In this document: in pieces, positions 15,795-16,692 of the stretch
Numbering within the stretch: the first letter of the stretch is position 1
How the letters are laid out: each line of letters starts with the position of its first letter
Origin: Escherichia phage vB_EcoM_G17
Strand: one strand, 5' to 3'
Length of the DNA stretch: 64,000 bases
Sequence record: MK327931.1
Translations under genes and position numbers: made by a program
The notes under the pieces: generated by a model
Databases searched by the model: none
The model's input: only the letters and a program-made list of their open reading frames with translations
What the model was told of the DNA's origin: nothing

Positions 15795-15823
15795 ATTTTA
15801 TCAGTACTGAACTATTTAGTCAA
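15795..15823 (-). promoter_or_regulatory. sigma-70-type promoter copy A (TTGACT-N17-TAAAAT) upstream of tRNA cluster
   Basis: Shares the spacer AAATAGTTCAGTACTGA with copies B and C; about 10 nt upstream of the tRNA-Ser-like 5' end. Confidence 0.55.
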
Positions 15824-16203
15824 GTACTATTTTCAGAAAAAACCTTATCCAACACTTCAAATATTACAGAATTTAATTCATGTGGAAACACATTTTCATA
15901 TACTGTGCGTTTCTGAAATTCATCTTCTTCATCAGCACTTAGCTGGAATGTTATGTATTCACAATTCAAACTATTTACTATATCTTGTAATGATGGTTTT
16001 TTTAGTTTTTTTATTTCTTTTGTTACTTCTAATGATTCAAAAATAATTTCGTTATCATTAATAATAAATGATTCCCCATTTTCATTAAAAATTCTAATTT
16101 CAGGATTATCTTCACTCCCATTTTTAGAAGCTTTTGATGTTAAATTGGAATTTAAAAACGATTTTAAAAACTCTTCATATTTTGAAAAATCTTTAATAAT
16201 CAC
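15820..16203 (-). CDS. EE-x-FFQ C-terminal-motif family paralog (divergent)
   Basis: C-terminal ADEEDEFQKRTVYENVFPHEL; GTGAGG RBS before ATG. Confidence 0.5.
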   Translation of the reverse strand: MIIKDFSKYEEFLKSFLNSNLTSKASKNGSEDNPEIRIFNENGESFIINDNEIIFESLEVTKEIKKLKKPSLQDIVNSLNCEYITFQLSADEEDEFQKRTVYENVFPHELNSVIFEVLDKVFSENST

Positions 16204-16254
16204 ATAAACCTCACTATACGTAACTTACACCATATACGTCTGATTGTGGAATTC

Positions 16255-16283
16255 ATTATATCAGTACTGAACTATTTAGTCAA
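16255..16283 (-). promoter_or_regulatory. sigma-70-type promoter copy B (TTGACT-N17-TATAAT)
   Basis: Consensus -10, near-consensus -35, conserved 17-nt spacer; upstream of gene 15820..16203. Confidence 0.6.
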
Positions 16284-16633
16284 GAATTAATTCGCATTTT
16301 TTTGAATTCACCAACCAAGTACTTATAGAACTCATAAGTAAACAATGGTTCTTGTACAGTACTCATTTGAAAATATTCTTCTTCTGTCTTTGGTACAGGT
16401 GAAGTATATGAAATATAGGGATTATAATCTTCTTCTACATAAGTAGAAACTTCAACATTAATTGAACTAAGATCTTTATGTAACAAAATGTTTAATATAA
16501 CAGTTCGTTGGTCAGGAGTTTCTTCATTTTCCATCCACTGTAAACACAATCTCATCAGTTCATCCCAAATATAAAATTGGAAGTTGTAATCTTCAAGGTT
16601 GCGTTTTATTGCTTCTTCATATTCACTAAACAT
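16280..16633 (-). CDS. EE-x-FFQ C-terminal-motif family paralog
   Basis: C-terminal TEEEYFQMSTVQEPL. Confidence 0.55.
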   Translation of the reverse strand: MFSEYEEAIKRNLEDYNFQFYIWDELMRLCLQWMENEETPDQRTVILNILLHKDLSSINVEVSTYVEEDYNPYISYTSPVPKTEEEYFQMSTVQEPLFTYEFYKYLVGEFKKMRINS

Positions 16634-16664
16634 ATCAAGTTGCCATATAAGTTAAGATACAAAC

Positions 16665-16692
16665 ATTATACAGTACTGAACTATTTAGTCAA
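16665..16692 (-). promoter_or_regulatory. sigma-70-type promoter copy C (TTGACT-N16-TATAAT)
   Basis: Same repeat as A and B; upstream of gene 16280..16633. Confidence 0.6.

Follow-up and report, generated by a model that had tools for sequence, protein, structure and literature searches.

A probably portable sigma-70-type promoter carries an AGTACT box over-represented throughout an Asteriusvirus jumbo phage genome

Within a 64-kb window of Escherichia phage vB_EcoM_G17 (MK327931.1; 64,000 nucleotides (nt), the whole stretch analysed here), one near-consensus sigma-70-type promoter occurs three times on the minus strand, ahead of two small open reading frames (ORFs) and a transfer RNA (tRNA) cluster. 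We consider it probable that these copies are a portable promoter copied as a cassette, in which AGTACT with its following G is the constrained part, and that the likeliest reader of this box is a clade-specific protein binding double-stranded DNA. AGTACT is the strongest compositional signal of the genome, is common to at least four genera, and points to a larger, undescribed genome-wide feature of the RaK2-like jumbo phages. The region matches Escherichia phages vB_EcoM_phAPEC6 and Sharanji at 100% identity; these are Asteriusvirus jumbo myoviruses of ~350 kb whose relatives include 121Q, PBECO4, RaK2 and GAP32; whole-genome statistics refer to a 353,100-bp assembly of phAPEC6 pieces and the 64-kb window. 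The paper describing phAPEC6 is without promoter analysis.

Three copies of one putative promoter

An earlier note on this DNA had listed three minus-strand elements with a common spacer, and these are present with the -10 hexamers it gave. Their shared 22-mer, TTGACTAAATAGTTCAGTACTG, has three exact minus-strand copies (15802-15823, 16262-16283 and 16671-16692), no fourth match at up to three mismatches in the 64-kb window, and no match in 100 dinucleotide-preserving shuffles. As a sigma-70-type promoter we accepted a -35 near TTGACA and a -10 near TATAAT whose second base is A and sixth base T, separated by 16-18 bp, on the same strand as a transcribed gene and upstream of it; an extended -10 was defined by T at -15 and G at -14 (TGn ahead of the -10 hexamer). 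The three copies are as follows.

Promoter copy 1: 16665..16692, minus strand; TTGACT-AAATAGTTCAGTACTG (16 bp)-TATAAT; 11/12 sigma-70 consensus positions; ahead of a 117-amino-acid (aa) ORF.
Promoter copy 2: 16255..16283, minus strand; TTGACT-AAATAGTTCAGTACTGA (17 bp, TGn)-TATAAT; ahead of a 127-aa ORF.
Promoter copy 3: 15795..15823, minus strand; TTGACT-AAATAGTTCAGTACTGA (17 bp, TGn)-TAAAAT; ahead of a tRNA-Ser(ACU)/Met/Asn cluster.

All three share the -35 TTGACT (5/6 consensus positions), followed by a perfect -10 in copies 1 and 2 and by TAAAAT (5/6) in copy 3, so that agreement over the two hexamers comes to 10-11/12 positions and the copies rank among the top-scoring sigma-70-like sites of the region. 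The extended -10 is present in copies 2 and 3 (CTGA-TATAAT and CTGA-TAAAAT); in copy 1 the TG directly adjoins the hexamer, at -14/-13. Sequence identity ends abruptly, at the -35 on one side and a few bases past the -10 on the other, and the flanks are unrelated; the repeat is thus promoter-sized, which rules out the larger segmental duplication that the earlier note had named as a way for its proposal to fail.

The genes served by the copies all lie on the minus strand, as do all local genes, and each copy faces a gene or tRNA downstream on its own strand.

117-aa ORF (phAPEC6 gp093c / Sharanji gp217): 16280..16633, minus strand; cargo of copy 1.
127-aa ORF (phAPEC6 gp092c / Sharanji gp216): 15820..16203, minus strand; cargo of copy 2.
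tRNA-Ser(ACU), tRNA-Met(CAU) and tRNA-Asn(GUU) cluster: 15519..15784, minus strand; cargo of copy 3.

Copy 1 stands 31 nt from the ATG of the 117-aa ORF, and copy 3 stands 10 nt from the tRNA-Ser(ACU)-Met-Asn cluster. The note's placement of each copy upstream of a gene or tRNA thus holds; its assignment of the two ORFs to an 'EE-x-FFQ family' is not supported, nor is a reading of them as paralogues, as they align to each other only at BLASTP E >0.07 and have no Pfam match. The units interlock: the TGA within the -35 TTGACT of copy 2 (16280-16283) is the stop codon of the 117-aa ORF, and that within the -35 of copy 3 (15820-15823) is the stop codon of the 127-aa ORF, so that a promoter copy sets the C-terminus of the gene upstream of it.

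That the three elements are promoters is well supported by their hexamers, spacing, strand, position and conservation as a unit in relatives. Host RNA polymerase would most likely use them early in infection, each copy starting a short transcription unit (the 117-aa ORF, the 127-aa ORF and the Ser-Met-Asn tRNA cluster, respectively). The papers on CBB and PA5oct describe RpoD-like early promoters in both of these relatives, and growth of PA5oct is rifampicin-sensitive and requires host RNA polymerase; its transcript starts by RNA sequencing carry TTGAC/TATAATA motifs (PMC7318152).

The repeat could in principle be inert, three leftovers of segmental duplication that resemble promoters by chance. 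AT-rich DNA does yield many such matches, and promoter-like sites overall are not enriched in the surrounding AT-rich 12-kb region (59 observed against 65 expected in shuffles). We nonetheless regard this explanation as very improbable: the unit is exactly promoter-sized between unrelated flanks, every copy points toward a gene or tRNA, the 22-mer stays unchanged between genomes whose flanks diverge by 5-23%, and the same architecture recurs in other genera.

Promoter copies mark the borders of gene cassettes

A 34-nt query finds the element two to five times per genome in roughly 35 Asteriusvirus records, and in weaker versions in the Klebsiella phages RaK2, K64-1 and Muenster. Wherever the 22-mer was found in Asteriusvirus genomes it is 100% identical, within flanks that are 77-95% identical. 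On comparative maps of 121Q, PBECO4, ph0011, Turkey3, TH47 and JNE01, the borders of gene presence and absence coincide with promoter copies, and BLAST homology breaks off at copies 2 and 3 (query positions 1240-1247 and 1706-1709).

The individual rearrangements take several forms. Copy 1 has an identical orthologue in 121Q, PBECO4, ph0011, Turkey3 and TH47 and is absent in JNE01; TH47 has two copies. Between the 117-aa ORF and copy 2, ph0011 carries an additional unit of promoter plus 240-nt ORF, the promoter of which brings along ~17 nt of the copy 1 leader. Before copy 3, both ph0011 and Turkey3 hold a further unit of promoter, tRNA-Ser and HNH endonuclease, with promoter copies at its bounds. 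In 121Q, PBECO4 and Turkey3 the 117-aa ORF is followed by a degenerate copy, then a 9-codon mini-ORF (MFKDERPDL), then a full copy, and in JNE01 the same mini-ORF and a promoter copy precede a different tRNA, tRNA-Ser(UGA). In piece coordinates, mini-ORF and promoter lie at 3932-4030 in 121Q, 3432-3530 in PBECO4, 3430-3530 in Turkey3 and 1355-1420 in JNE01. This combined unit looks like the footprint of a promoter-mediated rearrangement.

These maps support the suggestion of the earlier note that the promoter moves with a gene cassette: it is present in two to five copies per genome, at differing sites among relatives, with insertion and deletion borders at the copies. We envision that the promoter, at times with a few leader bases or the mini-ORF, is duplicated or exchanged through recombination between copies, which would thereby come to mark the borders of small gene cassettes gained and lost among related phages. 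The identity of the whole spacer, including its AAATAGTTC part, is best explained by such copying of the promoter and would not reflect function; functional constraint on the spacer would be limited to its AGTACT(G) part, which lies one or two bases from the -10.

An AGTACT-box promoter class

Each copy carries AGTACT immediately ahead of its -10, and further boxes lie nearby.

AGTACT box of copy 1: 16672..16677; one base (G) from TATAAT.
AGTACT box of copy 2: 16263..16268; two bases (GA) from TATAAT.
AGTACT box of copy 3: 15803..15808; two bases (GA) from TAAAAT.
Second AGTACT box of copy 3: 15823..15828; shares the first T of the -35 and lies 20 bp away from the box in the spacer.
Two more AGTACT boxes: 16726-16731 and 16746-16751; 20 bp apart, inside a 54-aa ORF upstream of copy 1.

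The second box of copy 3 also encodes the C-terminal Ser-Thr of the 127-aa ORF product.

Genome-wide, the strong promoter-like sites fall into several sub-families with identical spacers, and their shared feature is AGTACTG directly before TATAAT. The pattern T[TG]GA[CT][AT]-N9-10-AGTACT-N1-2-TAnnnT matches 21 promoters against 0.76 expected, ~18 of them convincing; three map to 23-38 kb, the three of the window to ~55 kb, and most others to 328-346 kb, where they lie between small ORFs close to the end of the genome. In the 134 sites that match the consensus at 11/12 positions or more, AGTACT starts 7 nt before the -10 in 15 and 8 nt before it in 7, against 0.35 expected per offset. Pairs of AGTACT at 20 bp are likewise in excess (11 against 2.4 expected).

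The architecture extends beyond Asteriusvirus. In an 8-kb early region of RaK2, 11/13 strong promoters have the box, many with aAGTAC immediately 5' of TTGACA, and 20-bp pairs number 7 against 0.43 expected; annotated promoters of GAP32 read aaaAGTACT-TTGACA-N10-AGTACT-T-TATAAT, and the pair excess is reproduced there. Across the 2.9 million contigs of IMG/VR, exact TTGACA-N9-AGTACTGTATAAT is nearly restricted to RaK2, 121Q and two metagenome contigs rich in AGTACT. We interpret the box as defining a promoter class common to RaK2-like jumbo phages, whose members often have another AGTACT at the -35 edge, 20 bp further upstream.

The earlier note had also proposed that a second factor reads a 10-bp palindrome in the spacer, TCAGTACTGA. 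Across the class, neither the N9 segment nor the base 5' of the box is constant, this flank being C, T, G or A, and the 10-bp palindrome is hence private to these copies; the conserved unit is AGTACT(G). The proposal is thus supported only in part and in a narrower form, for a core that is fixed relative to the -10, enriched and conserved.

Many AGTACT-class promoters at 328-335 kb (e.g. 328102, 331331 and 334626) are followed by a conserved leader, TATAAT-aGTTTACATCAA-GGGGAGAAtagtTCTCCCC, which comprises a GC-rich hairpin at ~+15 to +35 lacking a U-tract and then a ribosome-binding site. None of the three window copies has this hairpin leader.

AGTACT is an over-represented and conserved word

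AGTACT is the top-ranked hexamer of the genome, with 919 copies against 120 expected from mononucleotide composition and 186 from an order-2 Markov model, and the top 8-mer is CAGTACTG, with 198 copies against 3.5 and 11.4, respectively (z ~54-55 for both). The 64-kb window contributes 130 AGTACT sites, where 21.5 would be expected. Density is ~1 per 380 bp, with a mean spacing of 384 bp. The average context is a weak symmetric extension, TTnC-AGTACT-GnAA, and the weakness of this context indicates that most sites are not promoters.

The excess does not stem from codon or dipeptide usage. ORFs contain 760 sites against 226±11 after synonymous-codon shuffling that kept the proteins (3.4-fold), the excess holds in all three frames (3.0-, 4.0- and 3.6-fold), and this combination rules out such an origin; Ser-Thr is written AGT-ACT in 52% of cases against 15.5% expected. 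Density is 4.9 per kb in intergenic and 2.35 per kb in coding DNA.

Individual AGTACT sites are also under purifying selection, as judged from 34.5 kb aligned to JNE01 at 77.9% identity (phage SP27, 98.6% identical over the region, was uninformative for this comparison, and JNE01 was used in its place). Within this one genome pair, 39/59 AGTACT sites (66%) are kept, against 24-26% of same-composition hexamers and palindromes (Fisher p=3e-11), and the motif itself has diverged about half as much as its flanks.

Samples of RaK2, GAP32 and Yersinia phage fHe-Yen9-04 likewise have AGTACT as their rank-1 hexamer, which makes four genera in all (Asteriusvirus, Alcyoneusvirus, Mimasvirus and Eneladusvirus), whereas the word is under-represented in T4, PA5oct and a 50-kb sample of E. 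coli K-12; per 10 kb, the phage has 26 sites and the E. coli sample 0.6 (~40 times). Other palindromes are missing from the genome altogether, namely GCGC (0 against ~295 expected), CCATGG, GGTACC, CGTACG, AGGCCT, AGCGCT, CCCGGG, CCGCGG, CGGCCG and CGCGCG, with GATC and CTAG at 0.55x. This is classical restriction-site avoidance, and such purging makes the retention of 919 ScaI-type AGTACT sites in the same genome more striking.

In the literature searched, which covered the motif, the promoters of phAPEC6, RaK2 and GAP32, and over-represented palindromes (the GAP32 paper lay outside coverage), neither an AGTACT box nor its enrichment is described, and no report of HIP1-like AGTACT enrichment was found for phages.

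Two stretches of phAPEC6 are free of AGTACT, at ~309.1-316.8 kb (7.7 kb) and 319.4-324.4 kb (5.0 kb). Both are small-ORF arrays, and they may be recent imports or regions in which the word is selected against.

Candidate readers of AGTACT

The fixed offset from the -10 across three genera, taken with genome-wide enrichment and conservation and with symmetric flanks, suggests that AGTACT is recognised as double-stranded DNA by a symmetric reader; an RNA-level motif is unlikely given flanks that are symmetric under reverse complementation. The likeliest reader, in our preferred account, would be a protein confined to this clade, one that binds AGTACT in double-stranded DNA and alters the activity of RNA polymerase at promoters of the class.

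Several points weigh against this account. We infer promoter activity and its early timing from sequence features, and recombination between copies from comparative maps. As many as 760/919 AGTACT sites (83%) lie within ORFs, lacking promoter context and spread evenly along the genes, and the conservation test covers 59 sites in a single genome pair. In copy 1 and the other members with 16-bp spacers, TG falls at -14/-13, one base out of the canonical extended -10 register. In Yersinia phage fHe-Yen9-04, 0/26 promoters of the sampled region have the box despite the genome-wide enrichment, so that the promoter role may be a separate, secondary use of a genome-wide word. No AGTACT-binding protein was identified, a whole-proteome domain scan not having been made.

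A conventional operator, in which a dimeric phage or host regulator binds the spacer palindrome and represses or activates early promoters from sites between or bracketing the -35 and -10, is a serious possibility that we nonetheless rate as somewhat doubtful. AGTACT is perfectly palindromic, its flank preferences are symmetric, it overlaps the core promoter at a fixed -10 offset in 22/134 strong promoters, a second box often lies 20 bp upstream with the same 20-bp peak in RaK2 and GAP32, and the architecture is conserved in three genera. Yet TCAGTACTGA is not conserved within the class, and 919 sites, the great majority within ORFs and not concentrated in regulatory regions, are unlike an ordinary operator set. 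Nor did a candidate DNA-binding protein turn up, short of a full proteome scan, and one host candidate is excluded. SlmA of E. coli binds GTGAGTACTCAC, which has an AGTACT core. The phage has no full GTGAGTACTCAC match, one match to GT.AGTACT.AC and only four GAGTACTC, and a G 5' of the core is disfavoured (6-10% against ~17% background). A LexA box was considered as well, since TACTGTATAA is half-site-like; its CTG-N10-CAG partner was not seen in an inspection by eye.

We are more tentative about a broader version, in which AGTACT serves as a 'self' word: the ~900 selected sites would be recognised by a modification system or by a dedicated phage protein that may enter the cell together with the DNA, and this recognition would also gate immediate-early promoters through one or two boxes that bracket the -35 and abut the -10.

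RNA polymerase itself might read AGTACTG as an extended -10 or spacer element, through region 3 of host sigma-70 together with the beta' zipper or through a phage sigma-70-family factor, with no separate factor needed at promoters. The phage factor is encoded in the window (1689-2654, minus strand), has regions 2, 3 and 4, and finds its best PDB match in RpoD (E=5e-17, low identity); promoters of the -35/-10 type could be its targets at later stages of infection. In favour of a polymerase-intrinsic element, the box is anchored to the -10 and not to the -35, its 3' G yields TGn in members with 17-bp spacers, and a second promoter group of the phage has a classical TGTGn extended -10 at the same place. 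We regard this as rather unlikely to be the explanation, because enrichment and conservation inside ORFs and the second box upstream of the -35 are left unexplained, members with 16-bp spacers have TG shifted by one base, and GAP32 has T, not G, after the box.

A methylation mark appears improbable as well. AGTACT would here be the target of an orphan phage methyltransferase marking phage DNA, and early promoters would be methylation-sensitive, for example distinguishing injected from newly replicated DNA. The nearest analogue, HIP1, is tied to orphan methyltransferases (PMC4390886, PMC5861425), RaK2 DNA is reported to resist many restriction enzymes (PMC3622015), and in a genome otherwise purged of palindromes the 919 ScaI/Eco255I-type sites would be safer if protected. 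The phage also encodes a PF05869 Dam-family N6-adenine methyltransferase and a C5-cytosine methyltransferase (PF00145; 27405-28265, minus strand), but nothing ties either enzyme to AGTACT. The C5 enzyme is compact (286 aa, with a short target-recognition region), and among solved structures it aligns best, over its full length, with the catalytic domains of eukaryotic DNMT3A/B/C (E ~2e-23). It is probably CpG-specific: RaK2 is reported to carry methylated CpG, to which its bisulfite data point and which AGTACT does not contain, and this makes the C5 enzyme unlikely to be the AGTACT enzyme. Furthermore, Asteriusvirus DNA is cut normally by ten enzymes (EcoRI, HindIII, ClaI and seven others, ScaI not among them), which argues against global modification.

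Comparison with known systems

The copies resemble the PeSL elements of T4-type phages (PMC2839356, PMC4122927), in which near-identical strong sigma-70-like promoters are repeated among small non-essential ORFs and mark the borders of insertion, deletion and replacement between close relatives; recombination between PeSL copies yields mini-circles. In contrast to PeSL, the three copies lack the terminator stem-loop that forms half of the composite element, and the repeat is only ~29 bp. No terminator-like site was found adjoining any of the three, and the 60 nt upstream of them have folding energies of -9.2, -7.2 and -2.9 kcal/mol, none below the range given by shuffles; we thus reject PeSL in the strict sense. 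The use of repeated promoters as recombination handles, known in T4-type phages, would here operate likewise in 350-kb jumbo phages, with the terminator half missing, and such promoter cassettes would help explain the shuffling of the many small orphan genes and tRNAs of these genomes.

A different promoter family outside the window is the closer counterpart of T4 PeSL. In this terminator-promoter fusion a terminator hairpin holds the -35 (GGGTTGACTTCGGTCAGCCC-T5-TATAAT / aaGGGTTGACTTCGGTCAGCCCtttttgtTATAAT), with ~10 copies; sites of the aaGGGTTGACTTCGGTCAGCCCtttttgtTATAAT family lie at ~18.7-32.2 kb and 326-335 kb in phAPEC6, at 6562 and 23552 of a GAP32 piece, and at 7982 of a RaK2 piece. 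The CBB paper lists one such fusion element as a terminator only.

Extended -10 (TGn) sigma-70 promoters and T4-type early promoters have extra conserved positions upstream of the -10. The phage class is alike in that conserved bases just upstream of the -10 add to a near-consensus -35 and -10, and it differs in that these bases form a 6-bp palindrome reaching -19 or -20, a word that is also enriched genome-wide, and in the register of TG in members with 16-bp spacers. The SlmA site, too, is a palindrome with an AGTACT core scattered over a chromosome, but the absence of full sites and the disfavoured 5' G make it no match.

HIP1 (GCGATCGC) of cyanobacteria is likewise a short, hyper-abundant palindrome that occurs in all frames and between genes, has conserved orthologous sites indicative of selection and not of mutation bias, and lacks an established function (PMC5861425, PMC4390886). 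AGTACT differs in being a hexamer in a virus and in having a fixed position in a promoter class, which is not reported for HIP1. The degree of enrichment differs as well: HIP1 exceeds expectation 15-300 fold, AGTACT 5-8 fold and CAGTACTG 17-57 fold. Iterated palindromes such as HIP1 have been unexplained for decades. AGTACT holds a fixed place in promoters of a cultivable coliphage, so that its reader and function are directly testable with standard E. coli tools, and, were the 'self' word to prove true, it would be a viral counterpart of HIP1 with a readable regulatory output. In practical terms, the promoters are compact, strong-looking parts, and AGTACT density offers a simple clade marker in metagenomes.

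Neighbouring genes

The tRNA-Ser served by copy 3 (15693-15784, minus strand) has the anticodon ACU, with A at position 34, which is unusual for bacteria, and would decode AGU. This is the first codon of in-frame AGT-ACT pairs (384 cases), a tie that may be coincidental.

Upstream of copy 1, at 16704-17190 on the minus strand, lie three tandem overlapping 54-aa ORFs that all begin MTHEEWM. The MTHEEW motif recurs in at least three small ORFs among the tRNA genes (17679-17879, 18204-18398 and 18459-18638), and together these form a small paralogous family.

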